Source: Gammaproteobacteria bacterium (GTDB lineage: Bacteria > Pseudomonadota > Gammaproteobacteria > Natronospirales > REEB76). Taken from it: a stretch of DNA of 64,000 bases. Within the stretch, counting starts at the first letter, position 1, and the number at the start of each line of letters is the position of its first letter. The position numbers and the translations under genes are program-made. The notes under the pieces are model-generated. The model was not told the origin of the DNA and searched no databases. It saw nothing but the letters and a program-made list of their open reading frames with translations. Of this stretch, positions 9,859 through 47,988 are shown in pieces. Location: the NCBI GenBank assembly GCA_049698775.1, contig JBAVYM010000041.1:5691-69690 (forward strand), written 5' to 3'.

Positions 9859-9902
9859 CTTTTGGGAGGTCTGATTAAATTGTCCATATCCCAAGTTCGT
9901 CA

Positions 9903-9968
9903 TTCCGGCGAATGCCGGAATCCAGAAAAATCAATTTCTTACTGGATACCTCCCGGTGAAAGCCGGGA
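9903..9968. repeat. REP-like hairpin pair (TTCCGGC-gaat-GCCGGAA and TCCCGG-N6-CCGGGA)
   Basis: Two short perfect stems lie in the intergenic gap 9859-10149. The cattccggcgaatgccggaatccag motif is characteristic of intergenic REP elements. Confidence 0.5.
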
Positions 9969-10149
9969 TCACGCCGGTATGACGAAGTCAGAAGATCAGC
10001 GAACAAATCATGGCAATCCTGTAACGTCCAACAATACGCCATGAATATGAACGCCTCTCGCCCCGCTATGGCGGGGCATGGGGCATTTTTAGAAGTGGTG
10101 GAATATCCCAGGTTGAGGGTTTAGAATTCACCAATCGCTGGAGGATACT

Positions 10150-10383
10150 ATGGCGGCAAATCTCAAAGAAGAACTGCACCTGCTGGCAGACCGCCTGCCA
10201 GACGGAGCCACGTGGAAGGACATACTCTACGAAGCCTACGTGCGTCAGGAGATCGAAGCGGGTCTTGAGGAAGCACGGCGTGGCGAGTTCGCGACCGACG
10301 CCGAAGTAAAATCCGCTTTTGCCAAATGGGGTGTGCAGATTGAAACTGAAATGGACTCGCCAGGCGCTGCATCAGCTTCTTGA
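10150..10383 (+). CDS. Antitoxin partner of the ParE/RelE-family toxin
   Basis: 77 aa and acidic. The C-terminal ...EARRGEFATDAEVKSAFAKWG motif is common in such antitoxins. It overlaps the toxin gene. Confidence 0.6.
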   Translation: MAANLKEELHLLADRLPDGATWKDILYEAYVRQEIEAGLEEARRGEFATDAEVKSAFAKWGVQIETEMDSPGAASAS

Positions 10384-10624
10384 CGCGCAGGACTACATAG
10401 CGCGAGAAAATCCAAGTGCAGCAAAGCAAGTTGTCAATCGCATTGCGGCGACCTGTCGTCAACTGCTCGATCACCCCGTGATGGGTAGAGCCGGGCGTAT
10501 CACCGGCACACGTGAACTTATCGTTAATCGCACGCCTTACTTTGTCATCTATGCAGTCGTGGATGACACCGTGCAGATCCTGCGCGTGTTGCACGGCAAA
10601 CAAGACTGGCCTCCGAAGAGCTAA
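10331..10624 (+). CDS. parE: ParE/RelE-family type II toxin
   Basis: LKLKWTRQALHQLLDAQDYIARENPSAAKQVVNRI...VIYAVVDDTVQILRVLHGKQDW is a classic ParE/RelE pattern. The start is ambiguous (GTG 10331 or TTG 10340), and either one overlaps the antitoxin by 44-53 nt. Confidence 0.75.
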   Translation: MCRLKLKWTRQALHQLLDAQDYIARENPSAAKQVVNRIAATCRQLLDHPVMGRAGRITGTRELIVNRTPYFVIYAVVDDTVQILRVLHGKQDWPPKS

Positions 10625-10658
10625 AACATCCATCCTTCTTCGCTGGCAGGTACTTCAG

Positions 10659-11249
10659 TCAGTTTCCCAGGCTGAACATGCGTTTCCAGATGGGCTGACG
10701 TAGCAGACTGTGCAGCACCACCACGGCCAGATGGCCACCCCAGTAGATCCAGGCGATGACCGCGAAGGTGTCGTGGACATCTTCGATGATTTCAAGGGTA
10801 TCGTGGCCGGCGCCGGCCATGCGCGACAGATAGAACACGCCGCCGGTGATTGCCATGGCGGTGATGGCAAGCAGGCCGAGACCGTGGATGAACCCCACCA
10901 GACCGCCGCCCTTTGCTCCGGGCCCGCCTGACGGCAGGCGCAGATAGCGAACGGCTTGCCAGAATTCCCGGATGACATTGCATAGGCCCTGGCGCGTCCA
11001 GGGAAACAGGTGACGCAATCCTTCATGCGGATGAGTGCAGGACCAGAGCCAATGCAGAATAATGAGCGCGAGGATGGTGGCGCCCAGAATTTCATGCGTT
11101 TCAAAGCCGAAGGTATCCGGCCGGCCTGAATGCGGGCTGTGCATGAAACTGCCGATGAATAACTGCGCCGTGACGGCGATTGCCAGCAGCAGGTGAATCA
11201 GCCGTAGCGGCCGGCTCCAGTGTACCGTAGCAGTTCCCTGATCGCTCAT
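10659..11249 (-). CDS. Cytochrome b561 family protein
   Basis: The ATG at 11249 gives MSDQGTATVHWSRPLRLIHLLLAIAV... It has 4 TM segments with conserved His residues, typical of the CybB-like family. Confidence 0.7.
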   Translation of the reverse strand: MSDQGTATVHWSRPLRLIHLLLAIAVTAQLFIGSFMHSPHSGRPDTFGFETHEILGATILALIILHWLWSCTHPHEGLRHLFPWTRQGLCNVIREFWQAVRYLRLPSGGPGAKGGGLVGFIHGLGLLAITAMAITGGVFYLSRMAGAGHDTLEIIEDVHDTFAVIAWIYWGGHLAVVVLHSLLRQPIWKRMFSLGN

Positions 11250-11315
11250 GCGCTTGCTCCCATTGCGGATGTTTTGAGGACGGCCACATTCTGCCTGATT
11301 CCGGTCTGATGGCAA

Positions 11316-12392: not shown

Positions 12393-13370
12393 TCATGTCG
12401 GCTCAATGGCCCGCAAGTGGCGCGCGACCGCCAACCAGGAGCCCAGCCAGCCGAGCACGATGCCGCACAGAAGCAGGATCAGGCTGCCCTTGAATCCCAA
12501 GCCGCTCAGGGTGAACTGGCTGCCGTACAGGCTCGCCAGACGGCTCACCGGCCCAGCCACGAGCACAAGGGCGATGATTACCAGAATCCAGGCCAACACA
12601 CCGCCCGCGAGACCGTACCAGGCGCCGTGATACAGGAACGGCCGGCGGATGAAGCGGTCGGTCGCGCCCAGCAATTTGCTGACTTCGATTTCTGCACGGC
12701 GGTTTTCGATTTCCAAGCGGATGGTATTGCCGACGATCAGTACCACGGCAATGGCGAGCAGCAGGGCGATGATCACCACCGCGCGATGCAGAATGGCGAG
12801 TATGGCTTGCAGGCGTTTGAGCCACTGGATGTCCATGCGCACCTGATCCACTTGCGGCAGGGCAGCGAGCGCCTGACCCAACTGCTGAGCCGCCGCCGGA
12901 GTGGCGTAATCGTCAGTTGGTGTAATCACCAGCACCGCGGGCAGCGGATTGTTGCCGAGCAATCCGAGCGCATCGCCGAAACCGGAGCGTTGCTGGAAAT
13001 CGGCCAGCGACTGACTGGCGGTGATAATTTGTACGGATGCTACACCCGCATGCGAACGCATCGTATTGGCGAATTGTTGCACCGTGCTGTCACTCAGATC
13101 TGTTTTCAGGAACAGCGAGATGCGCGCGGCACCCTGCCAGTCAGCGCTCACATTCTTGGCGTTATTCACGAGCACCAGCATACCGGCGGGCAGCGCGAGT
13201 GCGATGCCGATGACCGCCACGGTCATGAAGGTGGCGAGCGGATGGCGGCGCAGGCGCGTGAATCCCGCCAGCAACATTTGCCGGTGATGCAGCAACCAGG
13301 CACGCAGGCGCTGGCCCAGCGTGCGCCGGTTCAATTGCGCGCCGTGGGTGCTGGCGTCACGCGCCGGCAT
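12393..13370 (-). CDS. ftsX: Cell division ABC transporter permease FtsX
   Basis: It has the 4-TM FtsX architecture with a large periplasmic loop, follows ftsE, and overlaps it by 14 nt. Confidence 0.9.
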   Translation of the reverse strand: MPARDASTHGAQLNRRTLGQRLRAWLLHHRQMLLAGFTRLRRHPLATFMTVAVIGIALALPAGMLVLVNNAKNVSADWQGAARISLFLKTDLSDSTVQQFANTMRSHAGVASVQIITASQSLADFQQRSGFGDALGLLGNNPLPAVLVITPTDDYATPAAAQQLGQALAALPQVDQVRMDIQWLKRLQAILAILHRAVVIIALLLAIAVVLIVGNTIRLEIENRRAEIEVSKLLGATDRFIRRPFLYHGAWYGLAGGVLAWILVIIALVLVAGPVSRLASLYGSQFTLSGLGFKGSLILLLCGIVLGWLGSWLAVARHLRAIEPT

Positions 13371-14043
13371 GGGCGCCTCCTTGTAGTTCCGGCGTCACCA
13401 TGCGGCCCTCGCGCAGGCTCAGGAAGCGTTCGCCGAGGCGGCGGATGAGATTGTGGTCGTGGCTGGCCACCAGCACTGTGATGCCAACCTGGTTCAGACG
13501 CTGGAACAGGCGCATGACTTCGTAAGACAGATCCGGATCCAGGTTGCCGGTGGGCTCGTCGGCAATCAGGATGGGCGGACGGCTGATCACGGCGCGCGCG
13601 ATGCCCACGCGCTGCTGTTCGCCGGTGGACAGCGTGACGGGCAGGACGCGCTCCTTGCGCAGCAATCCCACCAGTTCCAGCGCGGCGCCCACGCGCTTGG
13701 GAATTTCCTGGTGGGGTACGCCGGCAATCGTGAGCGGCAGAGCCACGTTGTCGAACACCGGCCGGTCGTGCAGCAGCTTGTGGTCCTGGAAAATCACACC
13801 CACCTGGCGGCGGTAATGGGGAATCTGGCGGCGGCGGATGCCGGAGAGGTTCTGGCCGTTGACAATGATCTGGCCGCGGCTCGGGCGTTCGATAAGCGCC
13901 AGGAGTTTCAGCAGTGTGCTCTTGCCGGCGCCCGATGGGCCGGTGAGGAACACCATTTCGCCTTGTGCGACGCTGAAACTCACGCCGGCCAGCGCTTCGT
14001 TGCCGCCAGCGTAGCGCTTGCTGACTTCGTTGAACTGGATCAT
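13357..14043 (-). CDS. ftsE: Cell division ATP-binding protein FtsE
   Basis: [11 protein letters not shown]..., Walker [10 protein letters not shown], signature LSTGEQQRV and Walker B ILIADEP are present. The longer track ORF (to 14295) is an upstream in-frame extension into ftsY. Confidence 0.9.
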
Positions 14044-14963
14044 GTTGTAGTATCGCCCACCAAAGCCTCCGCAAAGGCACGCGCGTCGAATTCTTCCAGA
14101 TCGCCGGCCTGTTCGCCAATGCCGATGAAACGGATCGGAATGCCGAAGCGCTGCGCCGCGGCAATCAGGATGCCGCCCTTGGCGGTGCCGTCGAGCTTGG
14201 TGATGGCCAGTCCGGTGACCTGCACGGCCGCATGAAACTGCTCGATCTGGCGCAGGGCATTCTGACCGGTACCGGCGTCCAGCACCAGCAGACATTCGTG
14301 CGGCGCGGCGGGATCGAGCCGGGCCAGCACACGGCGGATTTTTTTCAATTCTTGCATGAGGTTGCCCTGGGTGTGCAGCCGCCCGGCGGTGTCAACGATC
14401 AACACGTCACTGCCGCGTGATTTGGCCGCCAGCCAGGCGTCGTGCGCTACCGCCGCGGGATCTGCTCCCGGTGCCTGCGCGATGACCGGCATGTCTTGGC
14501 GCGCCCCCCAGGTTTGCAACTGCTCCACCGCCGCGGCGCGGAAGGTATCGCCCGCGGCCAGCAGTGGTTGTTGCCCGGCGGATTTGAAGCGTTGCGCCAG
14601 CTTGGCGATGGTGGTGGTCTTGCCGACGCCGTTTACGCCCACCGTCAGGATCACGAACGGTTTTGCGGCGGCATTTATCGTGAGCGGCTTGGCGACCGGC
14701 TCCAGCAACTCTGCGATGTCTTGTGCGAGCGCCGTGCGCAATGCATCGGTGTCTTTCAAGCTCCCATCGCGCGCGTGAGTGCGCAGCCGTTCGAGAATCC
14801 CGTGCGTCGCGTCCACGCCCACGTCCGCCTGCAACAACTGGGTTTCCAGTTCTTCCAGCAACGCTTCATCCAGCGCCTTTCCCGGCGCGATGCGTAGCAC
14901 CGCGCGCTGCAGCCGTTCACGCAAGCGCGTGGAAAACCCGGGTTTGGCAATGTTCTGGTTCAT
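14040..14963 (-). CDS. ftsY: Signal recognition particle receptor FtsY (short form)
   Basis: The NG domain shows GVNGVGKTTTIAKLA, DTAGRL and TKLDGTAKGG. It has a 4-nt overlap with ftsE. Confidence 0.95.
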   Translation of the reverse strand: MNQNIAKPGFSTRLRERLQRAVLRIAPGKALDEALLEELETQLLQADVGVDATHGILERLRTHARDGSLKDTDALRTALAQDIAELLEPVAKPLTINAAAKPFVILTVGVNGVGKTTTIAKLAQRFKSAGQQPLLAAGDTFRAAAVEQLQTWGARQDMPVIAQAPGADPAAVAHDAWLAAKSRGSDVLIVDTAGRLHTQGNLMQELKKIRRVLARLDPAAPHECLLVLDAGTGQNALRQIEQFHAAVQVTGLAITKLDGTAKGGILIAAAQRFGIPIRFIGIGEQAGDLEEFDARAFAEALVGDTTT

Positions 14964-18714: not shown

Positions 18715-18765
18715 TCTGGGTCACGACCGGCGGGGCCGGGCCCGCGGTATTTGGCATCTTGCGCC

Positions 18766-18779
18766 TTGATTCATATCAA
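18766..18779. promoter_or_regulatory. FNR/Dnr-type box TTGATTCATATCAA upstream of norB
   Basis: This is a perfect TTGAT-N4-ATCAA palindrome. It is intergenic, with its centre ~74 nt upstream of the norB ATG at 18847. Confidence 0.75.
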
Positions 18780-18846
18780 GTTCCCGGATGGACGGATAAC
18801 CTATAGTCGCGTCGTTATCTACCTCACGGAATCTATCTCACGGAGC

Positions 18847-21177
18847 ATGGCCATGGGTACAGTTATGGATGGCGTTACCGAGGCTCCCCTTTCACCTTGG
18901 TGGGTGCGCAGCATCGTTGCGGTGATGGTGCTGGGCTTTGCGGTGCTCATTCTGATCACGGTGCTGGGCTATCGGAATGCGCCGCCGATCCCGGCAAAGG
19001 TAGTTGACGCACAGGGCGCAACCCTGTTCACCGGCGAAGATGTCGGCAGCGGTCAGGCGGTGTTCCTGAAATATGGGCTGATGGACAACGGCAGCATCTG
19101 GGGCCACGGCGCCTACCTCGGTCCTGATTTCTCCGCGCAAGCGCTACACCACATCGGCGAGGACACTGCCGAGGCGCTCGCACAACAGCAGTTCGGCAAA
19201 CCGCTCGCGCAACTGATCCCGATGCAGCAGGCGGCGGTGCGCTCACAAGTTGCGGTCGAGCTCAAAACCAATCGCTACGACCCTGCTACAGGTACATTGG
19301 CGCTGACACCCGCAGAAACTGCGGCGTGGCATCAACAGATCACTCACTGGACCGATTACTTCAAGAATCCGGTCGGCAATGGCGGTCTCAAGCCCAATCT
19401 GATAACCGATCCGACCGAGCTGCATCAATTCACCGCCTTCGTCACCTGGGCGGCCTGGGCCTCGGTGGCCAATCGGCCCGGCTACGACTACTCCTATACC
19501 AACAACTTCCCCTACGACCCGTTGGTCGGCAACACTCCGATATCCGGCGCTTTGCTATGGAGCGCGTTGAGCCTTTTGGTGCTGCTGGCCGGCATCGCCG
19601 CGGTGCTGTTAATGTTTGGAAAATTCGACTATCTCGGCTGGATTTCACGCGGAAACCGCCCCCACCCCAGCATCGTTCCGGGCCAGGCCAGTCCCGGACA
19701 GCGCGCACTGGTCAAGTACTTCGTGGTCGTGGCACTGCTGTTTCTGTTCCAGACCCTGGTCGGAGGCGGTGTCGCGCACTATCGCGCCGATCCGGGCAGT
19801 TTCTACGGTTTCCAGTTGGAAACCATCTTCCCCAGCAACCTGCTGCGTACCTGGCATTTGCAGAGCGCCATCATCTGGATTGCAACCGCCTATGTCGCCG
19901 CCGCGCTGTTCCTCGGCCGTGGGCTGCGCGACAACGAACCGCACGGATTCGCACTGTGGGTTAATCTGCTATTCGTCGCGTTCGTCGCGGTGATCGTCGG
20001 CAGTCTGCTCGGCGAGTGGCTTGGCATCACGCAGATGCTCGGACAATGGTGGTTCTGGCTCGGTAATCAGGGTTGGGAATACCTGGAGCTGGGGCGCATC
20101 TGGCAATATCTGTTGGTGATCGGACTGCTGGTGTGGTTCGCGTTGCTGTGGTGGGTGGCGCGGCCACGTGAGGTGGCCGATGCCAGCGCGCGCCCGATCG
20201 TGCGGATGTTCCTGTTGGCATCGCTCGCGATCCCGCTGTTCTACCTGCCGGCGCTGTTCTACGGCGCGAAGACCAACTACACGATTGTCGATACCTGGCG
20301 CTTCTGGATCATCCACCTGTGGGTCGAGGGCTTCTTCGAGTTCTTCGCCACCACCATCGTCGCGCTGGTGTTTTTCCAACTCGGGCTCGCCAGGCGCAAT
20401 ACCGCGCTGCGCGTGATCTATCTGGACGCGATCCTGTATTTTCTGGGCGGCCTGATCGGTACCGGTCACCACTGGTACTTCGAAGGCCATACCCAGTTCA
20501 ACATGGCGATGTCGGCGTTGTTCTCGGTGCTGGAAGTGGTGCCGCTGACCTTGCTGACGCTGGATGCCTGGGATTTTGTCAATACCACCCGTGGAACGGT
20601 AGATATTGACGGCCAGCCGCGCCGCGTACCACACAAGTGGACTTTCTACTTCCTTATGGCGGTGGGTTTCTGGAACTTTGTCGGGGCCGGCATGTTCGGC
20701 TTCCTGATCAATCTGCCGATCGTCAGTTACTACGAGGTCGGCACACAGTTGACGCCCAATCACGGCCACGCCGCGATGATGGGCGTGTTCGGCATGCTGG
20801 CAATCGCGCTGATGGTGTTCGTGCTGCGCCAAACCACCGATGAAGCGCGTTGGCCCGGTATCGAAAAGTACATCAAAGTAGCCTTCTGGGGCACCAATGT
20901 CGGCTTGGCAATGATGATCGTGATGAGCCTGTTTCCGAGCGGCGTGTTGCAGGTGTGGGATGTGGTACAGCATGGCTACTGGCATGCACGCAGCCTCGAA
21001 TTCACCGGCACCCATCGCGCGCGCGTGATCGAGTGGTTGCGCCTGCCGGGTGATCTGGTGTTCATCTTTCTCGGTGCACTGCCGCTGGTAATCGCTGCGA
21101 TCAAGACGTATTTCGGCATGCGGCGGGATCGTGCCGCGGAAGCTGCTCCGGCAGCCAGAATCCGGAGCGTGCCGTGA
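18847..21177 (+). CDS. norB: Quinol-dependent nitric oxide reductase (qNOR, single-subunit NorB/NorZ)
   Basis: At 776 aa it carries the N-terminal extension typical of qNOR (...FLKYGLMDNGSIWGHGAYLGPDFSA...) followed by a 12-TM heme-copper oxidase core with conserved His residues. The start at 18847 follows GGAG. Confidence 0.9.
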   Translation: MAMGTVMDGVTEAPLSPWWVRSIVAVMVLGFAVLILITVLGYRNAPPIPAKVVDAQGATLFTGEDVGSGQAVFLKYGLMDNGSIWGHGAYLGPDFSAQALHHIGEDTAEALAQQQFGKPLAQLIPMQQAAVRSQVAVELKTNRYDPATGTLALTPAETAAWHQQITHWTDYFKNPVGNGGLKPNLITDPTELHQFTAFVTWAAWASVANRPGYDYSYTNNFPYDPLVGNTPISGALLWSALSLLVLLAGIAAVLLMFGKFDYLGWISRGNRPHPSIVPGQASPGQRALVKYFVVVALLFLFQTLVGGGVAHYRADPGSFYGFQLETIFPSNLLRTWHLQSAIIWIATAYVAAALFLGRGLRDNEPHGFALWVNLLFVAFVAVIVGSLLGEWLGITQMLGQWWFWLGNQGWEYLELGRIWQYLLVIGLLVWFALLWWVARPREVADASARPIVRMFLLASLAIPLFYLPALFYGAKTNYTIVDTWRFWIIHLWVEGFFEFFATTIVALVFFQLGLARRNTALRVIYLDAILYFLGGLIGTGHHWYFEGHTQFNMAMSALFSVLEVVPLTLLTLDAWDFVNTTRGTVDIDGQPRRVPHKWTFYFLMAVGFWNFVGAGMFGFLINLPIVSYYEVGTQLTPNHGHAAMMGVFGMLAIALMVFVLRQTTDEARWPGIEKYIKVAFWGTNVGLAMMIVMSLFPSGVLQVWDVVQHGYWHARSLEFTGTHRARVIEWLRLPGDLVFIFLGALPLVIAAIKTYFGMRRDRAAEAAPAARIRSVP

Positions 21178-22188: not shown

Positions 22189-22875
22189 CTAGTGCATATG
22201 CCGGCGTAGCCTTTCAGTATCAAGCAGGGTCACTTCTTCATCCGCTACCTCAATCAGGCCTTCTTCGCTGAGCGTCCTGAGCGTGCGCGAGAAGGTTTCC
22301 GGCGTCACCGCCACATGCGCAGCGATCAGCATCTTGCGCGCCGGCAAGATGACAGTGACTTTGCCGCGCTGGCCCTCGGGCACCAGACCCAGCAGATAGT
22401 GCACCACGCGGAAGCGGCTGTTTTGCAGGGTCAGGGCTTCGATCTCGTCCCAGTGCGCCTGGATGCGTTGCGTCATCTGCGCCATGACCGCACGTGCCGT
22501 ATCGAAGGATTCGCGCAGCATGTCCAGGAATGCCGCGCGTTCAATGCCGACCAGAATACCGTCTTCGATACCGGCCGCGTGCACCGGGTAATGTGGTTCA
22601 TCCATGAACATGACGCTTTCCGCGAAACTCTGTCCGGGGCGGATCAGGCGCATGATCTTTTCCTGCCCGTCCGCCGATACCCGGTAGAGTTTCACCGCGC
22701 CGGATTGCAGCAGGAAGAATGACTGCGCAGGATCCCCCTGGCTGAACAGCGCTTCGCCGGCCTTGAAAGCATGGGTATGGATGTGTGTCAGCAGCCTGTT
22801 GCGCTGGCCCTCAGTGAGCGCCGAGAACAGGTAATGATGGCGTAATTCGCGCGCGAGCTGATTATGGTTGTCCAC
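22189..22875 (-). CDS. Crp/Fnr-family transcriptional regulator, Dnr/NnrR-like (no cysteines)
   Basis: It has a cNMP-binding-like beta-roll ([26 protein letters not shown]) and a C-terminal HTH with the E--SR recognition motif ([13 protein letters not shown]). No Cys is present, so it lacks the FNR-type Fe-S ligands. The start is GTG. Confidence 0.85.
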
Positions 22876-22930: not shown

Positions 22931-22944
22931 TTGATATGCATCAA
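22931..22944. promoter_or_regulatory. FNR/Dnr-type box TTGATATGCATCAA in the regulator/fdxA divergent promoter region
   Basis: This is a perfect TTGAT-N4-ATCAA palindrome. It lies ~62 nt from the regulator GTG and ~76 nt from the fdxA GTG. Confidence 0.75.
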
Positions 22945-23746: not shown

Positions 23747-24697
23747 TCAATTCACTATCCGCGCGGCGGGGCCGGCAACGGGCGAAACCCAGGCGTGGCT
23801 CGCGAGTCCGGCGCGCTTGAAGGCTTGCTGCATAATTTCAACTGCCTGTTGCGCCGTTTGCTCGGCCGCGAACCAGGCGAACAGGCTCGGACCCGCACCG
23901 GATATTCCCGCGCCGAGCGCTCCGCACGCGAGCGCTGCGCGTTTCACGTCTGCAAATCCGGGTATCAATTCCGCCCGGCGCGGCTCGATGAGGCAGTCCG
24001 ACAATCCCGCGCGGATCAGCTCCGGATCATTGCGGTAGCAGCCGCTCAGGACCAGCGCCAGGTTGCCGGTCTGCTGCACGATATCTTCGAGTGCGAACGG
24101 CCGGTCCAGCACTTGGCGGGCCTGCAAGGTCCGCACCTCGAGTTCCGGGTGTACCAGCACGCAATATAAATTTGGTGGCACAGGCACCGATACCACCTGC
24201 CCGGACGTGGCGATCACGAGTCCGCCGTACAGCATCGGGCCGACGTTGTCGCCGTTGCGCGTGCCACTCGCCAGCGATTCTCCATCCAACGCGCATTGAT
24301 AAAGCGTTTCGAGCGACGCTGGAACATCCAGCAGCGCATTCGCCGCCACCAGTGCGGCGACACAGGAAGCGGCCGAGCCGCCCATGCCGGACGCGAGCGG
24401 GATGCCCTTGTCGAGTTCGATCTCGAAACCGCTGGACAGGTTGAGTACGCGGCGCAGGGACAGCAGCGCGGTACCTGCGGTATTTTTCTCAGCAGCGAAT
24501 GGGATATCGCGGGTCACGCCGCGAATATCGGTAATGTTCACCACCGGTTCAGCGATGATGCGCACCGTCACCCGGTCCTGCAGGCCGACGACAGTGTGTC
24601 CGAGAAAGTCAAATCCCACCGCCACATTGCCGACACAGGCCGGTGCGCAAGCCGTGGCCTGCCGACGAGCAGCAATGTGTTTGATGACTTTGGTCAC
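23747..24697 (-). CDS. thrB: Homoserine kinase ThrB (GHMP kinase)
   Basis: APACVGNVAVGFDFLG and the GHMP motif GIPLASGMGGSAASCVA are present. The start is uncertain (GTG 24697 chosen), and the track ORF extends to 24802. Confidence 0.8.
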   Translation of the reverse strand: MTKVIKHIAARRQATACAPACVGNVAVGFDFLGHTVVGLQDRVTVRIIAEPVVNITDIRGVTRDIPFAAEKNTAGTALLSLRRVLNLSSGFEIELDKGIPLASGMGGSAASCVAALVAANALLDVPASLETLYQCALDGESLASGTRNGDNVGPMLYGGLVIATSGQVVSVPVPPNLYCVLVHPELEVRTLQARQVLDRPFALEDIVQQTGNLALVLSGCYRNDPELIRAGLSDCLIEPRRAELIPGFADVKRAALACGALGAGISGAGPSLFAWFAAEQTAQQAVEIMQQAFKRAGLASHAWVSPVAGPAARIVN

Positions 24698-24719
24698 CGC
24701 ATTTTGCAATCGGCGTTGT

Positions 24720-25880
24720 TCATACCCGCGCAGGGCCGAAGTGTACGGGAATGAAGCGGATGAAATACACGGCAAATGCCAGCGCCCACAGCGCACCGGC
24801 AAGCGGCAACAAGCCGGAATATCCGATCATGCGCAGGATGGCGGCGGCGGTTATCAGCAGGAATGCCGTGGTCATGAACGGTCCGGCCTGCAATGGCCGG
24901 CCGGTGTGGCCGAGCGGCACGCGCGTCATCATGCCGATGGACAGCGAACCGAGTGCGCCCACGATGATGGCGTGCAGCGCGGTGATCTCGGGGATGGCAT
25001 GCGCGAGCAGCGCCAGACCACGCAGGCCGAGGCCAATGACCAGCCACAGGTAACCGAGATGCAGCACCCACAACATGGGCTCACGCCAGGTCTTCCAGGG
25101 CTTCCAACCCAACAGACGTACCAGCGCGAGAATCGCCACCAGCAACGAAACAATGCCCAGTGCGGTGGAGTCCGGCAGGACAACATCAAGCAGCACCAGC
25201 AGGACTGCACCGCCGTTGACGCACCAGTTGATCCCGCGATAGCTGCGCACGCCGGCCTTGGCGATGCGCCGCTCCGTGAAAAACGGAATTACGCGTCCGC
25301 CGATCACCAGCATGAGCACGGTCAGAAGATCAATCACCCAAATGAGCGCTTGATATGCCGTCAGCCGGATCACGCCGGCCACGGCCAGATGAAACAGCGC
25401 ATCGGCGAGTGCGAACGCGAGCAGCAGCGGAATCAGGAACAGATTACGGCGGTTGCGACTCTGCAGAATCGGGCGCGCCACCAGCAACGCCAGCAACGGG
25501 AAAAATGCAAAATCCAGGACTGCGGCGACAGGATAGGGAATCAGCGCAGGCAGCAGGAACGCAATGCGGCCCAGAAGCCACACTATCGCCAAACCCGCCA
25601 GAGAAACCGGCGTGACGACCGGCAATTTGGTCCAGTCGGCCACGGCTGTGAGCAGGAATCCCGCCATGAGCGCGGCGGCGAAACCGAACAGCATCTCGTG
25701 ACCGTGCCACAAGAGCGGCGACAGCGAAGCGGCGGGAATCAGGCCGAGATGCAGGAACAGCGCCCAGGCCAGGATGTCCAGGCTGGCGAACAGGGAAGCG
25801 CCCAGGAACATCAGGCGGAAAGGCTGTTGCAGTAATGGCGAGACGCGCGCCGGCTGAGCCGGTGACAATGCTGTATTCAT
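24720..25880 (-). CDS. nnrS: NnrS family membrane protein (heme/copper, NO-stress associated)
   Basis: It is a ~12-TM protein whose N-terminal region ...QPFRLMFLGASLFASLDILAWALFLHL...LWHGHEMLFGF is typical of NnrS. Confidence 0.85.
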   Translation of the reverse strand: MNTALSPAQPARVSPLLQQPFRLMFLGASLFASLDILAWALFLHLGLIPAASLSPLLWHGHEMLFGFAAALMAGFLLTAVADWTKLPVVTPVSLAGLAIVWLLGRIAFLLPALIPYPVAAVLDFAFFPLLALLVARPILQSRNRRNLFLIPLLLAFALADALFHLAVAGVIRLTAYQALIWVIDLLTVLMLVIGGRVIPFFTERRIAKAGVRSYRGINWCVNGGAVLLVLLDVVLPDSTALGIVSLLVAILALVRLLGWKPWKTWREPMLWVLHLGYLWLVIGLGLRGLALLAHAIPEITALHAIIVGALGSLSIGMMTRVPLGHTGRPLQAGPFMTTAFLLITAAAILRMIGYSGLLPLAGALWALAFAVYFIRFIPVHFGPARV

Positions 25881-25926
25881 GCAGGGAACCCCGTGATTTG
25901 TACGCGAATCCTGTGAGGCAGGTACG

Positions 25927-26173
25927 TCATGTCGAAAATACCCTTTTCAGATAGCGCAGACCACGCAGATAATCCAGTTCGTCCTGCCGGAAGCGCAAAC
26001 TGCAAAGCCCAGTGATTTCCTTGCGGATGCCATCGGCCTGACGGGCGAGAGTTTCCCCGTGATTGCGGCACTTGAACCGATATTCCACTTCCGCGCTCGG
26101 AAAATGGTGCAATACCGCCTGCATCATGGTGAATTTGTAGAGATTCAGTATCGAGCAGGGACTCAATGATCAC
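25927..26173 (-). pseudogene. pncB: Relic of the nicotinate phosphoribosyltransferase gene (pncB): N-terminal ~80-98 codons only, frameshifted
   Basis: The minus strand reads ATGATCATTGAGTCCCTGCTCGATACTGAAT|CTCTACAAATTCACCATGATGCAGGCGGTATTGCACCATTTT, which translates [10 protein letters not shown] then, with a frame jump, [27 protein letters not shown].... This is the conserved PncB N-terminus. A full PncB is ~400 aa. Confidence 0.7.
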
Positions 26174-26234
26174 GATGGCGTCGGCACCTGGCAGCTTGTA
26201 TCGTCAAGCGCGCAACAGTGTTCAGGGTCTCCGC

Positions 26235-26576
26235 TCATTTGTTCGCGGCAGCCTGCTCCATCTCGTCCAGCGCCAGTACCGAATGCGCATAGGCGCCGCC
26301 GGCGCGCATCTCGGCCGCGACCCAGATGGCTTCCATGATTTCCGCGTCCGTGGAACCGGTGCGCAGTGCCGCGCGCGTATGACCGCGGATGCAGTAGGGG
26401 CACTGAGTGGTGTGCGCCACCGCCACGGCGATCAATTGCTTGGTTTTCTCCAGCAGTGCGCCATCAGCGAATACCTGCTGGCTGAATGCCTTGAAGGCTT
26501 CCAGTTGTTTCGGCGCCAGCGTTTTACGACGTGCCGAGAGCGCCGTGGAAGGTTCCGGGAAAATCGGGTGTGGCAT
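26235..26576 (-). CDS. Carboxymuconolactone decarboxylase-family (AhpD-like) protein
   Basis: 113 aa with the CXXC motif in context (HTTQCPYCIRGH) typical of the AhpD-like/CMD fold. Confidence 0.75.
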   Translation of the reverse strand: MPHPIFPEPSTALSARRKTLAPKQLEAFKAFSQQVFADGALLEKTKQLIAVAVAHTTQCPYCIRGHTRAALRTGSTDAEIMEAIWVAAEMRAGGAYAHSVLALDEMEQAAANK

Positions 26577-26615
26577 GGATACTCTCCTTGGATGTGTGAT
26601 GGTTATGGTTAAAGA

Positions 26616-26975
26616 TCAGCGTAAGCGGCGTTTCAGATACGCGGCCAGTACCACCGCTTGATTGCGTTCCTCATCGTGCGCGCCGAACAGTATGGTGACG
26701 GTGGCGTGTGCTTTGAGGATGTCCCGCAGAGCCTTGATCGCTGGCTTGTTGGCGCGCAGCTCGGCCGTATAACGGTGTTTGAACTCCAGCCATTTCTCCG
26801 GCTCATGGCCGAACCACTGGCGCAGTTTGGTGGTCGGCGCCACTTCCCGGTCCCAGTAATCCACCGCGGCTTTTTTCTTGGTCAGGCCGCGCGGCCACAC
26901 CCGGTCCACCAACACCCGGAAGCCGTCGCCGCGTGCGGGCGGCAGATACACGCGTTTCAGTTTAATGTTGGTCAT
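26616..26975 (-). CDS. DUF488 family protein
   Basis: The ATG at 26975 follows an AGGAGG RBS. MTNIKLKRVYLPPARGDGFRVLVDRVWPRGLTKKKAAVDYWDREVAPTTKLRQWFGH is the DUF488 signature. Confidence 0.75.
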   Translation of the reverse strand: MTNIKLKRVYLPPARGDGFRVLVDRVWPRGLTKKKAAVDYWDREVAPTTKLRQWFGHEPEKWLEFKHRYTAELRANKPAIKALRDILKAHATVTILFGAHDEERNQAVVLAAYLKRRLR

Positions 26976-27012
26976 GGTCTCAGCCTCCTGGCGCGGCCCG
27001 CGCCAACGTGTT

Positions 27013-27834
27013 TCAGTGTTCGCGTGCCACCATGAGCTTCTTGATCTCCGCAATTGCGCGTCCGGGATTGAGTCCTTTGGGGCAGGTGCGCGTGCAGTTC
27101 AGGATGGTGTGGCAGCGATACAGTTTGAAAGGATCCTGCAGTGCGTCGAGGCGTTCGCCCGCGGCCTCGTCGCGTGAATCCACCAATGCGCGGTAAGCCT
27201 GCAACAGCACCGCCGGTCCCATGAAGCGGTCGCCGTTCCACCACCAGCTCGGGCAGCCGCTGGTGCAGCAGAAGCACAAAATACATTCGTAATAACCGTC
27301 GAGTTTGGCGCGTTCCTCGGGCGACTGCAGGCGTTCACGATCGGGCGCGGGCGTTATGGTTTTGAGCCATGGCTCGATGGAGGCGTACTGCGCAAACGCG
27401 TGCGTCTGATCCGGCACCAGATCCTTGATGACCGGCATGCTGTTCAGCGGATAGATCTCGACCACGCCCGGGATGTCGCAGATGGTGCGCGTGCATGCCA
27501 GCCAGTTGGTGCCGTGAATGTTCATGGCGCAACTGCCGCATATGCCTTCGCGGCAGGAGCGGCGGAAAGTGAGCGTGCTGTCAATCTCGTTCTTGATCTT
27601 GATGAGCGCGTCCAGCACCATCGGCCCGCATTGATCCAGATCCACGAAATAGGTATCGAGCCGCGGCGGTTCGCCGCTATCCGGGTCGTAGCGGTAGATG
27701 CGAAATTCCTTGACGTGCCTGGTGTTCTCAGGTTTTAGCCAGACTCTACCTTTATGTACGCGCGCGTTCGGATTCATGCCGAGATTTCGCGGGATGATAT
27801 CGGTGATGTTCATATCTGGCAACTCGTGGCGCAT
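27013..27834 (-). CDS. sdhB: Succinate dehydrogenase/fumarate reductase iron-sulfur subunit (SdhB, long alpha-proteobacterial/mitochondrial type)
   Basis: [43 protein letters not shown] and [17 protein letters not shown] together give all three cluster motifs. The ATG overlaps the upstream stop (TAATG). Confidence 0.9.
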
Positions 27835-28784
27835 TATGCGAAGTGGCTGGTATCCACGGATGGCGGTTTACGCTCCATGAAATACTCGTTCAGATATTTC
27901 TCGCCCTCGTCACAGAACAGCGTGACCACCGTCTTGAGCTCCGGATATTGCGTGCGCACGCGCTTTGCGGTCAGCAGGTGCGCGCCCGAACTCGGCCCGC
28001 AGAACAAGCCATATTGCCGCGCCAGATAACGCATGGCCTGTACGGCTTCTTCGCTGGATACGCTCAGCACCTCATCCACGAGTTCGCGATGGCGCGTGAG
28101 GATGCCCGGGACGAAACCGTCCGAGATGCCCTCGATCTGGTGCGTTCCGATTTCGCCGCACAGCAAGGTGCAGGACTCCGACGGTTCCATCGCGAACAGG
28201 CGCACGCGCGGGTTGGCGGCGCGGAACGCTTGGCCGACACCCACGAGCGTGCCACCGGTGCCGACGCCCATGACCAGCGCGTCCGGCAGCGTGCCGTGCG
28301 GGAGTTGCGCGAGGATTTCCGGACCGAGCAACAGGCGATTCTCTTCAACGTTCCATTCCGATTCAAATTGGTGCGGACAGAAATAACCCGGTTGTTGTCC
28401 GAGTTCGCTGGCGCGCTTGAGCGCATCGCTGACATGGAAATGGCCGCAGAACAGGACTTCTGCGCCGTACGCACGCGAGATTGCCACACGCTCGCTGCTC
28501 ATTCCTTCCGGCATCACCACCAGCATGCGGTAGCCCTTGACCGCCGCAACCAGCGACAGCGCATTGCCGGTGTTGCCGCTGGTTGCCTCGACGATGGTGT
28601 CGCCGGGATGCAGCAGGCCCTGCTGTTCGGCTTTCTCGATCATGTATTTGGCGATGCGCGCCTTGATGGAGCCGGAGGGATTCAGGAATTCGAGCTTGGC
28701 GTAAATGCCATCCACCCGCAGCAGTGGCGTGTCGCCGATGGCGTCGAGAATGCTGGACGAGAGGGCCGTATAACGCGTTGGCAT
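27834..28784 (-). CDS. PLP-dependent cysteine synthase family protein (CysK/CysM-like)
   Basis: [15 protein letters not shown] holds the PLP lysine context. [10 protein letters not shown] and GVGTGGTL are also present. Confidence 0.85.
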
Positions 28785-28795
28785 GGATTGCCGCG

Positions 28796-29182
28796 TCAGT
28801 GCTTGAAGCGTGTGTTGCCTGGATCCACGCCGAGTGTCCAGGACGGCGGATCGCTGGCCGGAAATGTGCCGTCCAGTTCCGCATCAATGCGGCGCTCGCA
28901 TTCCGCGATGTGCTGGCCGGCAGGATCTTTGGTCGCCGGCGATTCCGACGGTTGCGACGATACGCCCGCGGCCGTGTGCGGTGCGATATGGGTTTGCAAA
29001 TAATGTTTGTAAAACAAATATGACACGATGAACGCCCTCCTGTACTGGGTTGTGGAGGCGAAATGTGCGGGATTCAATACCGCACGCCGGTAGATGCGCA
29101 GTGTCTGACGGGCATAATGACGAGCGGCGGTACGTCCGCTGCGCGCGACGATCCCGTCAATAATGGTCTTATCCACATTCAC
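28796..29182 (-). CDS. Hypothetical protein coupled to lipA
   Basis: The GTG start overlaps the lipA stop (GTGA). It is 128 aa with a C-terminal [10 protein letters not shown] motif seen in small uncharacterised proteobacterial proteins. Its position in a tightly packed operon supports coding. Confidence 0.5.
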
Positions 29183-30171
29183 GCGACCAAGCCCACGTTA
29201 TTGTGCTCCAGAACGCGCTCGGCACGGTAACTGGAGCGTACCAGCGGTCCCGCTACGGCCTCGGTGAAGCCCTTCTTGAGCGCGAACTCCCTATACGCGC
29301 GGAATTCGGCGGGCGTCACATAACGCTGTACCGGCAAATGGTTTTGCGTGGGCCGCAGATACTGGCCCAGTGTCACGATATCCACGCCCGCACCACGGAT
29401 GTCATCGAGTGTCCCGGAAATTTCCGCGTCGGTTTCGCCCAAGCCCAGCATCAAGCTGGTTTTGGTCAGCACATCCGGCTGCTGCTGTTTTGCGAATGCC
29501 AGCACCGTGAGTGTCTGTGCGTAGCCAGCGCGCGGATCGCGCACGCACGCGGTCAGCCGTTCGACGGTTTCGAGATTCTGGGCAAAGACCTTTACTTCCG
29601 CGGACAGCACCGTGGCGACCGCAGCGTGGTCGCCGCCGAAATCCGGCGTCAGCGCTTCCACGGCCGTATCCGGCGTGCGTGCATGAATGGCGCGGATGCA
29701 GGCGGCGTAATGCGCCGCACCGCCGTCGGGCAGATCGTCCCGGTCCACCGAGGTCAGCACCACGTATTTGAGGCGCATGAGTTCGACCGCTTCGGCCACG
29801 TGTACCGGTTCGAACGGATCCAGCCAGCCGTGCGGATTGCCGGTATCCACGGCGCAGAACTTGCAGGCGCGGGTACACACTGAACCCATGAGCATGAGCG
29901 TCGCGGTACCGCGGCCCCAGCACTCGGCAATGTTGGGGCACATGGATTCTTCGCACACCGTGTGCAATTTGTGCTCATGCACGATGCCGTGTACCGTCTG
30001 GTAGCGGCCGCCGGATGGCGGGCGGATCCGCAACCACGGTGGTTTCGGCAACGCTTCGAGTGGTTCGCCGGCGTGCGTGGCGCGGAGCCCGTGTTTGACT
30101 GCGTGAATGCCTTCCGCCGTGACGAACTTTTCGCCACTGTGCGGTGGCGATTTAATGCGCTTATCCGGCAT
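29179..30171 (-). CDS. lipA: Lipoyl synthase LipA (radical SAM)
   Basis: It has the auxiliary cluster motif [12 protein letters not shown] and the radical-SAM motif [10 protein letters not shown], plus the C-terminal ...[10 protein letters not shown]. Confidence 0.95.
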
Positions 30172-30235
30172 CGTGCCAAACCTCCATGAACCCCTTGGCT
30201 CGCTTCAAGGCTAGACCTGCAGCCGCCATCCGGCC

Positions 30236-30249
30236 TTGATGCGTATCAA
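30236..30249. promoter_or_regulatory. FNR/Dnr-type box TTGATGCGTATCAA upstream of lipA
   Basis: This is a perfect TTGAT-N4-ATCAA palindrome. It is intergenic, with its centre ~71 nt upstream of the lipA ATG at 30171. Confidence 0.7.
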
Positions 30250-30391: not shown

Positions 30392-30595
30392 TTGATTCCC
30401 ATGGAGTGCCTCCGCCTGATTTTCGAGACCTGCAAGAATCTCCAGACCGACGATAGCTTCCTGCCGGTCAACGACCATGATCCGAAGCCGCTCTATTACC
30501 AGTTCGAGGCCGAACACAACGGCGAATTCTCGTGGCAATATCTGGAACAGGGACCGACCGCCTGGCGTGTCGAAATCGGTCGCACGGTCGCCTGA
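30392..30595 (+). CDS. Small hypothetical protein (67 aa)
   Basis: The ORF has somewhat lower GC than the flanks and is followed 25 nt later by a canonical stem-loop/T-run terminator. I did not recognise a family. Confidence 0.4.
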   Translation: MIPMECLRLIFETCKNLQTDDSFLPVNDHDPKPLYYQFEAEHNGEFSWQYLEQGPTAWRVEIGRTVA

Positions 30596-33466: not shown

Positions 33467-34006
33467 TTAACTCCGCCAATAAAAAAGATCTAGATGCACG
33501 CGAGCTACACCTTTACCTTTTTTCTGTGCGACCTGTTTCGCAAAATCCTGAAATCTTTTGTTATCGGCAGGTTGTAAATGGATTACCCCCTTCCATCTTG
33601 GTAATTCTTTGGCCCTCTGCCTACGCTGTTCTTTTTTAAGTTTTGCAGTGACTTGACGATCGAGCGGAACCTCAAGCCATCTTCTAAGCCTACCCAATCC
33701 ATATTCTTTACAAATATATCTGTTGTAGAAACACTCTTCTAGAAAAATATTTAGAAATTTGCGGGCACTTCCCCATTTTCTTCCATTTTTAGGCAATTTA
33801 TTTCTGAGATAATTTGTACGGTGGTTCAGAATTTTTATAAAGACATTCTCGTTCTGCACATTGGAGAATGTACTAAGCTTCAAATGAATCAGGTATTTAC
33901 GAGCTTTCCCGATGGTATTTGGGCGCATCCCGCGAGCAGCTGAGGCACTGATAGATATATTGGCAATTCTCTTTTGTGCCAGCTTTATAAGCTTTTTATT
34001 AGGCAT
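33467..34006 (-). CDS. Orphan, strongly basic hypothetical protein in a low-GC islet
   Basis: 179 aa from the ATG at 34006 (MPNKKLIKLAQKRI...). I hand-counted 40 G+C in the first 100 nt of the islet, versus >60% in the flanks. I recognised no family. Confidence 0.5.
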   Translation of the reverse strand: MPNKKLIKLAQKRIANISISASAARGMRPNTIGKARKYLIHLKLSTFSNVQNENVFIKILNHRTNYLRNKLPKNGRKWGSARKFLNIFLEECFYNRYICKEYGLGRLRRWLEVPLDRQVTAKLKKEQRRQRAKELPRWKGVIHLQPADNKRFQDFAKQVAQKKGKGVARVHLDLFYWRS

Positions 34007-34039
34007 CGCAACCCACCCTCTTAGAGACAAACGGTGGTC

Positions 34040-44835: not shown

Positions 44836-44925
44836 ATTTGTGAGCAAAGTATAGCTCTTGCTTTTGGTATTGGCAATCGTTCGCATTTGCGTTTATGATT
44901 GCGGATACTGAATCAGGAAATACCC

Positions 44926-45150
44926 ATGTTCGTTTGCGTCTGTCATGCTGTGACCGAGAGTCAGATCCGCCGGGCGGTGGATGAGGGCGCCGCTGGCCTG
45001 GCCGACCTTGGCGCGCGGCTGGGAGTCGCCATCCATTGTGGCTGCTGCGCTGAACAGGCCGTTTCAGCGCTGCAGAAACGCTTGCTTGAAATCGCCTCCT
45101 CGCAACCTCTCACCGGTTCCACCGACATTCGCCCCGCACTTCGCTGCTAG
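44926..45150 (+). CDS. bfd: Bacterioferritin-associated ferredoxin
   Basis: MFVCVCHAVTESQIRRAV...CGCCAE gives the four Cys of the Bfd [2Fe-2S] motif. It lies immediately upstream of bfr. Confidence 0.85.
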   Translation: MFVCVCHAVTESQIRRAVDEGAAGLADLGARLGVAIHCGCCAEQAVSALQKRLLEIASSQPLTGSTDIRPALRC

Positions 45151-45279
45151 CCACGAATCTGAATCGTTCGTGTTTTCTTTAAATTTCATCAATAGAATCA
45201 ACGAGTTATTTATTTATCTGGCGAGAGCGCCTATGCTGCTCTCGGCATAAGCCGCTTTCTCCGGCCAATCGAGGGCAAC

Positions 45280-45744
45280 ATGCAAGGCGATACCAGGGTC
45301 ATCCAGTTCCTGAACAAGGCGCTCAAGAACGAGCTCACCGCCATCAACCAGTATTTCCTGCACGCGCGCATGTACAAGAACTGGGGCCTGAAGGATCTCG
45401 ACGAGCACGAATACAAGGAGTCGGTGAGCGAGATGAAGCACGCCGATCGGCTCATCGAGCGCACCCTGTTCCTGGAAGGGCTGCCGAATCTACAGGAATT
45501 GGGCAAGCTCTACATCGGCGAACACGTCAAGGAGATCATCGAGTGCGACTTGAAGCTGGAAATGGAAGCAGCGCCTTTGTTGCGCGAAGCCATCGCCTAC
45601 TGCGAATCGAAAAGCGATTACATTTCACGCGAGCTGTTCGAGGACATCCTGGAAAGCGAAGAGGACCACATTGATTGGCTGGAAACCCAGTTGGAACTCA
45701 TTCAGCGCGTCGGTATCGAGAACTACACCCAGAAGAAAATCTGA
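45280..45744 (+). CDS. bfr: Bacterioferritin
   Basis: [37 protein letters not shown]...[15 protein letters not shown] covers the ferroxidase ligands and the heme Met context. Confidence 0.95.
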
Positions 45745-47640: not shown

Positions 47641-47988
47641 ATGGAAAGCCAGTCAACCCACCTGCCACTTGTGTTCACCAGCGCCGCGGCGCGCAAGGTG
47701 AAGCAGCTCATCGAGGAGGAAGCGAATCCCGCCCTCAAACTGCGCGTGTTTGTCAGCGGCGGTGGCTGCTCGGGTTTCCAGTATGGCTTCACGTTTGACG
47801 AGAACGTGGAAGAGGGCGACACCCAGGTCAGCAACGAAGGTGTGATGCTGCTGGTGGACCCCATGAGCTACCAGTATCTCGCGGGCGCGGAGATTGATTA
47901 CTCCGAGGGCCTGGAAGGCGCGCAGTTCGTGATCCGCAATCCCAACGCCACGACTTCCTGCGGCTGTGGTTCGTCATTCAGCGTCTGA
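47641..47988 (+). CDS. erpA: Iron-sulfur cluster insertion protein ErpA
   Basis: [20 protein letters not shown] and the C-terminal CGCGSSFSV are present. Confidence 0.95.

Follow-up and report, generated by a model that had tools for sequence, protein, structure and literature searches.

Why should a lipoyl synthase gene (lipA), a small open reading frame (ORF) of no known family, a gene for a cysteine-synthase-like enzyme and an extra gene for the iron-sulfur (Fe-S) subunit of succinate dehydrogenase (sdhB) be packed head to tail in one bacterial gene cluster? This arrangement is found in a 64,000-nucleotide stretch of contig JBAVYM010000041.1 (the window) from the assembly of an uncultured soil gammaproteobacterium (GCA_049698775.1), whose closest named relatives are Rhodanobacteraceae. 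Rhodanobacteraceae are key denitrifiers at nitrate-contaminated sites. Denitrification necessarily passes through nitric oxide (NO), which poisons Fe-S and lipoyl enzymes, and how denitrifiers sustain the tricarboxylic acid (TCA) cycle and complex II while NO is being produced is poorly understood. The locus suggests a Dnr-controlled answer, which would combine lipoyl renewal, thiol chemistry and an alternative Fe-S subunit of complex II. Our preferred reading, which we hold to be evenly balanced between right and wrong, is that the cluster is a Dnr-induced maintenance operon of an NO island and that its sdhB would supply this alternative subunit.

Gene order and putative promoter of the cluster

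The first-pass annotation of this DNA described six minus-strand ORFs running head to tail from 30171 down to 26235, and all six were recovered at these positions:

29179-30171, minus strand: lipA, lipoyl synthase of 330 amino acids (aa) (TIGR00510, 369.9 bits against a cutoff of 310.25)
28796-29182, minus strand: orf128, a two-module small protein of 128 aa (seven orthologs align; no Pfam or NCBIfam family)
27834-28784, minus strand: fold-type II pyridoxal phosphate (PLP) enzyme of the CysK/CysM family, 316 aa (PALP, 3e-73)
27013-27834, minus strand: orphan sdhB paralog, 266 aa from the likelier start at 27813 (PRK05950, 348.9 bits against a cutoff of 228)
26616-26975, minus strand: YeaO-like DUF488 protein of 119 aa without cysteine (Pfam DUF488-N3i, 119 bits)
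26235-26576, minus strand: AhpD-like CMD protein of 113 aa with the motif CPYCIRGH (CxxCxxxH) (CMD, 2e-21; ahpD_dom, 65.6 bits against a cutoff of 27.8)

Adjacent genes are separated by 39 nt at most. The reported overlap of the lipA stop with the GTG start of orf128 (GTGA) is present, and this 4-nt overlap is conserved in every relative among the loci compared. The spacings of 11 nt between orf128 and the PLP gene, 37 nt before the DUF488 gene and 39 nt before the CMD gene also agree with the sequence, and the 37-nt gap contains an AGGAGG ribosome-binding site. The proposed TAATG overlap between the PLP gene and sdhB stands only as letters: the ATG is there, but it is probably not the start of sdhB. 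The conserved N-terminus of this SdhB clade, 'D[IV]IPRN[FL]G', begins upstream of M20, PGAP calls a 266-aa protein (MGB9429516.1) starting at M8 (27813), which leaves a gap of 20 nt after the PLP gene, and the two genes are 13-62 nt apart in relatives. M8 is thus the likelier start, and the suggested translational coupling of the two genes, not being conserved in relatives, is doubtful.

A further property of the cluster is consistent with a single transcription unit. A scan of the cluster for terminator-like sites gave none at the gene junctions and none after the CMD gene; the sole minus-strand hit lies within the PLP gene (28405-28385), and such hits are not enriched over shuffled sequence (8 versus 5.6). 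Purifying selection acts on all six genes. The ratio of nonsynonymous to synonymous substitution rates (dN/dS) is 0.05-0.11 for sdhB, 0.07-0.12 for the PLP gene, 0.09-0.18 for lipA, around 0.10 for the CMD gene, 0.11-0.25 for the DUF488 gene and around 0.2 for orf128, where dS is near saturation.

The gene order is conserved beyond chance. Scans of contigs for LipA and of metagenomes for SdhB gave a sample of contexts rather than a census, with mostly relatives at or below 73% identity. The order lipA, orf128, PLP gene, sdhB, DUF488, CMD recurs in at least five independent assemblies (loci L001, L004/5, L012, L092 and L006/7), drawn from ENA, JGI, NCBI and Logan; the copy in L092 has a GST gene inserted.

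A Dnr-type box had been noted in front of the operon, and it proves to be a perfect match to the consensus TTGAT-N4-ATCAA, centred 71 nt from the lipA ATG. Four features define the putative regulation:

30236-30249: FNR/Dnr-type box TTGATGCGTATCAA, between the divergent lipA and DUF2249 genes
30208-30213, minus strand: -10-like hexamer TAGCCT, 22 nt from the box, with TAGNNT at the same spacing in six lineages
18751-21177, plus strand: qNor-type nitric oxide reductase gene (Pfam NorB_cytochrome_c-like and COX1)
22189-22875, minus strand: gene for a cysteine-free Dnr-type Crp/Fnr regulator with the recognition motif ETFSR (Pfam cNMP_binding and HTH_Crp_2)

Boxes of this type with at most one mismatch occur six times in the window against 1.24 expected, and three of them are perfect. 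The box upstream of lipA is conserved with zero or one mismatch in L001, L004, L011, L012, L092 and L006. In an alignment of six lineages anchored at the box, TAGNNT stands at exactly 22 nt in every one, while the sequence of the spacer is unconserved. A box centred at -41.5 is the geometry of class II FNR-type promoters, and this spacing would place the lipA box in that position, with a putative start near 30201. The perfect box that precedes qNor (18766-18779) has a TATAGT 22 nt downstream, the same geometry as the putative lipA promoter. On the opposite side of the lipA box, a mirror TAAAGT lies 22 nt away on the plus strand, toward DUF2249, and the two hexamers at 22 nt on both sides suggest a bidirectional promoter.

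The third perfect box (22931-22944) lies near the regulator gene. With no cysteine and an E--SR motif (ETFSR), the encoded protein is by its sequence Dnr/NnrR-like, not an Fe-S FNR. No box with up to two mismatches precedes nnrS in 25800-26300, and transcription from the lipA promoter may run on into nnrS. An Rfam scan of 18-33 kb of the window found no RNA family.

The surroundings of the cluster form an NO-response island. Its order is qNor, a DUF4149-like membrane protein, hemerythrin, dnr, fdxA, zf-CHCC, thrB, nnrS and a 79-aa pncB remnant, followed by the six-gene cluster, the divergent DUF2249 gene and ggt. The first-pass annotation had offered an inducible replacement or repair set for NO-labile enzymes as one explanation. 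This idea fits an NO-response setting with qNor, hemerythrin, a Cys-less regulator, fdxA, nnrS and DUF2249, and the box and the extra sdhB agree with it.

Several properties of the enzymes concerned are relevant to how such an operon might work. NO degrades the Fe-S clusters of aconitase and of succinate dehydrogenase, and it also puts lipoamide-dependent enzymes out of action. LipA sacrifices its own auxiliary cluster, and AhpD and Ohr/OsmC take electrons from lipoyl proteins. We propose that the six genes form one transcription unit under a class II Dnr/FNR-dependent promoter in a nitric-oxide/denitrification island. At low oxygen, when NO is made or met, Dnr would switch the operon on together with qNor, NnrS, hemerythrin and DUF2249. 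Lipoyl synthase would then renew lipoyl groups, while the PLP enzyme, the AhpD-like CxxC protein and the small protein carrying the conserved block 'FPASDPP' (a part of orf128) would presumably provide a thiol or sulfur supply and a lipoyl-linked defence against peroxide and peroxynitrite. The extra SdhB would most likely replace the housekeeping SdhB in succinate:quinone oxidoreductase, together with the housekeeping SdhA and anchors, as an alternative isoform used while NO attacks Fe-S clusters, and central metabolism would be kept running.

The regulatory side of this proposal is known ground, as are stress isozymes. The DNR, NnrR and NsrR regulons of denitrifiers include norB, nnrS and hemerythrins of the dnrN/ytfE type (Rodionov et al. 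2005, PMC1274295), and the window resembles them in its TTGAT-N4-ATCAA box, its Cys-less Crp/Fnr regulator and the co-localisation of nnrS, nor, hemerythrin and DUF2249 genes. The difference lies in lipA, sdhB and cysteine synthase, which that work does not mention and which in the window follow the box. A literature search found nothing on the six-gene cluster, on an sdhA-less SdhB clade or on the orf128 modules (FPASDP), nor on nnrS in connection with sdhB or with Rhodanobacter. The locus also exposes three uncharacterised families: the flavoprotein-less SdhB clade, the Rhodanobacteraceae core of lipA with the 'FPASDPP', AhpD-like and CysK-like genes, and the orf128 modules.

The extra sdhB, its clade and lipA

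Is the sdhB of the cluster really an additional copy? A second sdhB was found in the same metagenome-assembled genome (MAG), directly after sdhA (P0070). Its product is 76% identical to the window SdhB and lies 223 accessions away (MGB9429293.1 versus MGB9429516.1); its contig comes from the same SRA run, and the gene sits between the C-terminus of sdhA (FAD_binding_2 and Succ_DH_flav_C) and ygfX. Another MAG contains both SdhB types, nine accessions apart. Based on MAG binning and accession proximity, the window sdhB is an orphan extra copy. In agreement with the first-pass annotation, tblastn finds no sdhA, sdhC or sdhD in the 64 kb, and none of the three stands next to sdhB at any orphan-clade locus inspected.

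By its residues the orphan protein is a complete Fe-S subunit of complex II. Every cysteine ligand of the 2Fe-2S, 4Fe-4S and 3Fe-4S clusters is kept, as are the quinone-site residues Pro160, Trp164, His207 and Ile209 (approximate E. coli numbering). Clade-specific substitutions, judged against 56 canonical SdhB proteins in the same numbering, comprise five that the orphan clade has in common with sdhBCD sets (T72W, P95N, S158G, M210L and A223G) and two in the orphan clade only (L146Y and Y162W). Several of them (S158G, Y162W, M210L) flank the 3Fe-4S cluster and the quinone pocket. The motif 'CFCC versus CACC' was tried as an orphan marker and rejected, both forms occurring in canonical sdhCDAB operons.

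The sdhBCD sets came to light among relatives at 70-73% identity, which include Methylobacterium fujisawaense with the order DUF488, sdhB, sdhC, sdhD and no sdhA. Sets of sdhB, sdhC and sdhD without sdhA are seen in L093/L094 (8001-10000, M. fujisawaense) and in the metagenomic loci L095, L097 and L098. The set in L095 adjoins fdxA-nnrS-DUF6448, that in L097 is preceded by an ArsR-type regulator and followed by an aconitase gene, and that in L098 is near a Rieske-Pyr_redox_2 fusion. A neighbor-joining (NJ) tree of 94 SdhB proteins places the orphan clade as sister to these sdhA-less sets, with 74 of 100 bootstrap replicates for the joint clade, apart from both the canonical sdhCDAB and the housekeeping sdhB linked to mdh and zapE. 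The label 'alpha-proteobacterial/mitochondrial type' given to the window SdhB at first is imprecise: the protein belongs to a distinct clade. Judged by its gene content, the sister group exchanges the NO-sensitive half of complex II, which holds the Fe-S clusters and heme, and not the flavoprotein. Such sets seem to represent a branch of complex II genes without a flavoprotein that has gone undescribed.

Precedents for parts of this picture exist. Synechocystis has split or duplicated sdhB genes (sdhB1 and sdhB2), and Ascaris has stage-specific complex II subunits; between them they offer sdhB away from sdhA, two copies of it and anaerobic isoforms. Unlike the window gene, the Synechocystis copies are not known to be tied to NO islands or FNR boxes, and Ascaris swaps the Fp and CybS subunits, not Ip. 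The window clade is proteobacterial and is sister to sdhBCD sets without sdhA. E. coli replaces AcnB by AcnA, and FumA by FumC under SoxRS, the newcomers being stress-resistant isozymes. The likeness is a second version of an oxidant-labile TCA Fe-S enzyme used under stress, and the sdhBCD set of L097 is coupled to aconitase; the difference is that the window duplicates one subunit of a four-subunit membrane complex, with the cofactors of the housekeeping copy and so no evident mechanism of resistance.

The flavoprotein-less sister group raises an alternative to the replacement of housekeeping SdhB, namely that the orphan is no complex II spare but the Fe-S wire of a flavoprotein-less module, like the SdhB-SdhC-SdhD of the sister clade. 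Such a module would connect the quinone pool to a reductase of the Rieske or Pyr_redox_2 type, to NnrS, to DUF488 or to a ~452-aa protein encoded in the DUF2249 operon of relatives. The sister group consistently lacks sdhA and has its own anchors, the clade signatures are concentrated around the 3Fe-4S cluster and quinone pocket and, with T72W and P95N, in the 2Fe-2S domain, DUF488 genes adjoin sdhB in Methylobacterium as well as in the window, and genes of the Pyr_redox_2 or Rieske type turn up repeatedly in the vicinity (L097, L098, L177 and the divergent Rieske operon). Against it stands the 73-76% identity of the orphan to bona fide SdhB, with a score above the SdhB subfamily cutoff. The loci share no alternative partner gene beside it, and the orphan clade lacks anchors of its own. 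Among the alternatives this is the most credible one, and we consider it unlikely.

A broader proposal is speculative, and we think it rather unlikely to be correct. The orphan SdhB and the sdhBCD sets would be a widespread undescribed flavoprotein-less branch of complex II, and the orf128 family would consist of dedicated accessory factors of Fe-S and thiol enzymes used in times of stress. The branch would serve either as a swappable Fe-S/heme/quinone half under NO or anoxia, or as a quinone-coupled electron module for NO-island proteins. The locus would gain weight if the SdhB clade is truly a distinct respiratory module.

Whether lipA is likewise a second copy is less clear. The radical-SAM motif CX3CX2C, the auxiliary-cluster motif CX4CX5C and the C-terminal RSSY (VRSSYRAE) can all be read in the translation, and by these motifs the window LipA is a bona fide lipoyl synthase. 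It is 72-84% identical to LipA proteins of the same cluster type and of Rhodanobacteraceae, and 65-70% identical to those of presumed housekeeping lipA genes in Gammaproteobacteria. Across Rhodanobacter, two LipA sequence types occur, one of 328 aa (on contigs with the PLP gene) and one of 325 or 334 aa. No second LipA of this MAG was found among 20 clusters inspected, with assignment by accession proximity. The distance of lipA from lipB, first seen as an oddity, is not unusual: of five related presumed housekeeping lipA loci with no cluster genes near, three adjoin a peptidase S49 gene, one a DnaJ-domain gene and none lipB. No lipB was matched in the window by a probe of approximate sequence, but this probe matched nothing in any sequence searched.

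Several of these observations weigh against the maintenance operon that we favour. The window lipA may be the organism's sole lipA, in which case the idea of a spare part does not apply to it, and its divergence from other Rhodanobacteraceae LipA proteins is no greater than that of an ortholog. The orphan differs from housekeeping SdhB exactly in the region where the housekeeping SdhC and SdhD have to fit. With no dedicated anchors or flavoprotein beside the orphan in the window and in relatives, its partner is a guess. The two sdhB genes are assigned to one organism through binning and accession proximity, not through a closed genome. Finally, in L012 (a 'Natronospirales bacterium' MAG, 10502-11253) one frameshift, at '...THVF|AQYASIEP...', interrupts sdhB, which points either to a pseudogene or to an assembly error.

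Conserved core, orf128 and the thiol enzymes

Comparison with more distant loci shows that the cluster is modular. In GCA_050739415.1 (L002/L011) the order is lipA, orf128, PLP gene, DUF488, CMD, and sdhB is found 5 kb off, at the end of a run pncB-nnrS-x-sdhB behind another perfect box. In L091, which has no lipA at the locus, an sdhB with 76% identity comes after norC/norB-like genes and a 77-aa ORF, surrounded by CMD, nnrS, fdxA, zf-CHCC, OsmC, a more distant CysK-family PLP gene, hemerythrin and crp; here OsmC takes the usual place of CMD, next to that more distant PLP gene. Mizugakiibacter has the order fdxA, zf-CHCC, lipA, 67-aa ORF, CMD, PLP gene, without sdhB and DUF488, and Rhodanobacter sp. 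FDAARGOS 1247 has only a 61-aa ORF, CMD and the PLP gene.

From these gene orders, the conserved core consists of lipA, the small 'FPASDPP' protein, CMD and the PLP enzyme. By the same comparison the lineage of the window has added sdhB and DUF488, and the link of sdhB is to the island, not to the PLP gene. The orphan-clade sdhB follows the PLP gene, nnrS or nor genes depending on the lineage, and lies in an NO island in every lineage sampled. Hence, contrary to what the first-pass annotation had implied, sdhB is no fixed partner of lipA or the PLP gene, being absent from the Mizugakiibacter and Rhodanobacter clusters, displaced in L002 and placed after nor genes in L091.

The 128-aa ORF indeed matches no Pfam or NCBIfam family. 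Its seven orthologs align in two conserved blocks joined by a variable linker, and the alignment indicates a real two-module small protein. The N-module (residues ~5-62) has the pattern '[LI]YR.AVL..HFAS..YRR.F..SY' and the C-module, the 'FPASDPP' block, covers residues ~92-118. A sensitive search returned 134 representative homologs, in which the two modules behave as independent small-protein families: each is found by itself, they are combined in both orders, and they also form tandem arrays or follow a Cys-rich zinc-ribbon-like domain. Examples are P0462, P0472, P0478-P0480, P0463 and P0489, with modules reversed, a Cys-rich zinc-ribbon/TRASH-like N-terminal fusion or tandem FPASDPP repeats. 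This distribution suggests a widespread uncharacterised small-protein system.

Hidden Markov model scans of all fetched loci show where the modules occur. Every locus with CMD and the 316-aa PLP gene has the C-module as well, including the 61-aa ORF of Rhodanobacter, the 67-aa ORF of Mizugakiibacter, L009 and L175, and a weaker copy lies upstream of the OsmC-PALP pair in L091. In these scans the N-module is confined to loci of the orphan sdhB, in six lineages, and in L091 it forms a stand-alone gene 4 nt upstream of sdhB. However, a stand-alone N-module in L177 comes after DUF59-DUF2249 and a membrane protein and before a Pyr_redox_2 gene, on a short contig that lacks sdhB; because of this copy, the N-module was downgraded from an SdhB-specific factor to an NO-island protein.

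The spacing '[LI]YR ... F[KR]' of the N-module resembles SDHAF1 and ISD11. At the level of sequence profiles, a LYR-motif protein of the SDHAF1/SDHAF3/ISD11 kind was rejected, since none of 36 members has a Pfam hit at E<=5; hhalign against six approximate LYR sequences gave a probability of 1%, and no PDB sequence was hit. A single-sequence AlphaFold2 model of orf128 reached a pLDDT of 48.

The PLP enzyme falls below all CysK, CysM and CBS cutoffs (cysKM, 283.1 versus 344.15; cysK, 276.8 versus 350.95; cysM, 196 versus 394). It has the PLP-lysine motif SIKAR, the ATSGNTG substrate loop, the GVGTGGT phosphate loop and GPSSGA, whose serine faces the pyridine nitrogen. Its best solved relative is the cysteine synthase 2EGU (1e-70, aligned end to end), from which it differs in the 'QF.NPANP' and 'GIGAGF' regions. 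Proteins of 316 aa with 77-88% identity to it are found across Rhodanobacteraceae.

In Rhodanobacter and Mizugakiibacter the CMD and PLP genes form a pair, and the motif CPYCIRGH is conserved in L009 and L175. The DUF488 protein matches best the N3i subclade, has no solved relatives by sequence, and its gene also adjoins the sdhA-less sdhB of Methylobacterium.

Two systems of Mycobacterium tuberculosis come closest to this part of the cluster. AhpC, AhpD, DlaT and Lpd form a lipoamide-dependent peroxynitrite reductase, and Ohr/OsmC proteins are lipoyl-dependent peroxidases. In the window, too, the gene for lipoyl synthase shares its NO-stress setting with one for an AhpD-type CxxCxxxH protein (OsmC in L091), which by analogy suggests a lipoyl-fed thiol relay; in contrast to M. 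tuberculosis, the cluster is without AhpC, DlaT and Lpd, and its CMD protein (113 aa) is shorter than AhpD. CysM with CysO, and CysK2, are alternative, stress-linked cysteine synthases. The PLP enzyme resembles them as a non-housekeeping CysK-family member tied to oxidative or nitrosative stress, but the window is without a CysO or Mec partner, and the constant partners are CMD and the 'FPASDPP' protein.

Could all six proteins instead form one uncharacterised sulfur-transfer or cofactor pathway, in which sulfur insertion by a radical-SAM enzyme, beta-replacement by the PLP enzyme and a CxxC protein possibly act on orf128, with SdhB as electron carrier? This had been the second idea of the first-pass annotation. 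The genes are tightly packed with a conserved lipA/orf128 overlap, CMD and the 316-aa PLP gene, where they occur (L009, L175 and the full clusters), always have an 'FPASDPP' protein with them, and all members handle sulfur or Fe-S chemistry. Nonetheless a dedicated SdhB-using sulfur pathway is disfavoured because sdhB is absent, displaced or behind nor genes in relatives; DUF488 too is missing from the Mizugakiibacter and Rhodanobacter core. Moreover, LipA scores as a full equivalog and has every motif specific to LipA, the FPASDPP motif contains no conserved lysine or cysteine and is widespread outside such clusters, often as tandem repeats, and no transporter or protease of the peptide-product type is present. 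We regard such a single pathway as improbable.

The last alternative, that a transferred sdhB landed by rearrangement in a plastic island and its packing is incidental, is in keeping with the fluidity of the island (the pncB remnant, the reduced DUF2249 operon, the GST in L092 and the varying position of sdhB), but it is the least probable of all because the orphan clade stays beside NO-response genes in every sampled lineage despite rearrangements, sdhB is under strong purifying selection, and it stands behind FNR boxes in two different arrangements.

Neighbouring genes of the NO island

Three further genes border the cluster:

24720-25880, minus strand: nnrS (Pfam NnrS, 8e-102)
25927-26166, minus strand: pncB remnant (nicotinate phosphoribosyltransferase), 79 aa (PRK05321, 82 bits against a cutoff of 379, N-terminus only)
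30401-30595, plus strand: DUF2249 gene, divergent from lipA (Pfam DUF2249, 8e-22)

In relatives a full-length pncB occupies the place of the remnant between CMD and nnrS, and in L002 pncB sits behind the perfect FNR box. Salvage of nicotinamide adenine dinucleotide (NAD) thus seems to belong to the NO island and to have been lost in the window. The DUF2249 gene is the last survivor of a six-gene operon that relatives have kept (L001, 4478-7528; L004, 3774-7498; L092, 1772-5612), encoding a Rieske protein, the ~452-aa protein without Pfam match, a double DUF2249/TusA-like protein, a DUF59/SufT-like protein, an 82-aa protein and DUF2249. In L004 a GHMP kinase gene adjoins this operon; the window has a homoserine kinase gene (thrB, 332 bits against a cutoff of 194) between zf-CHCC and nnrS (23747-24802, minus strand).

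A norC/norB-like pair in L091 (4725-7733) and L092 (1-1519) is followed by two conserved three-helix membrane proteins of ~100-117 aa and a small cytochrome c, and in L091 the run continues into the N-module gene and then sdhB. This set may be an alternative NO reductase operon.

Elsewhere in the window, iron and Fe-S genes occur at 44899-45744 and 47641-47988 (plus strand), and their link to the island is not obvious. They include erpA (NCBIfam, 194 bits against a cutoff of 117), near which bfd-like and bacterioferritin-like genes were assigned from their N-termini only. Three ORFs with a low GC content at third codon positions (0.37-0.54 versus ~0.75 for the genome), at 33467-34030 (minus strand), 13331-14164 (minus strand) and 9862-10633, are likely foreign or spurious.

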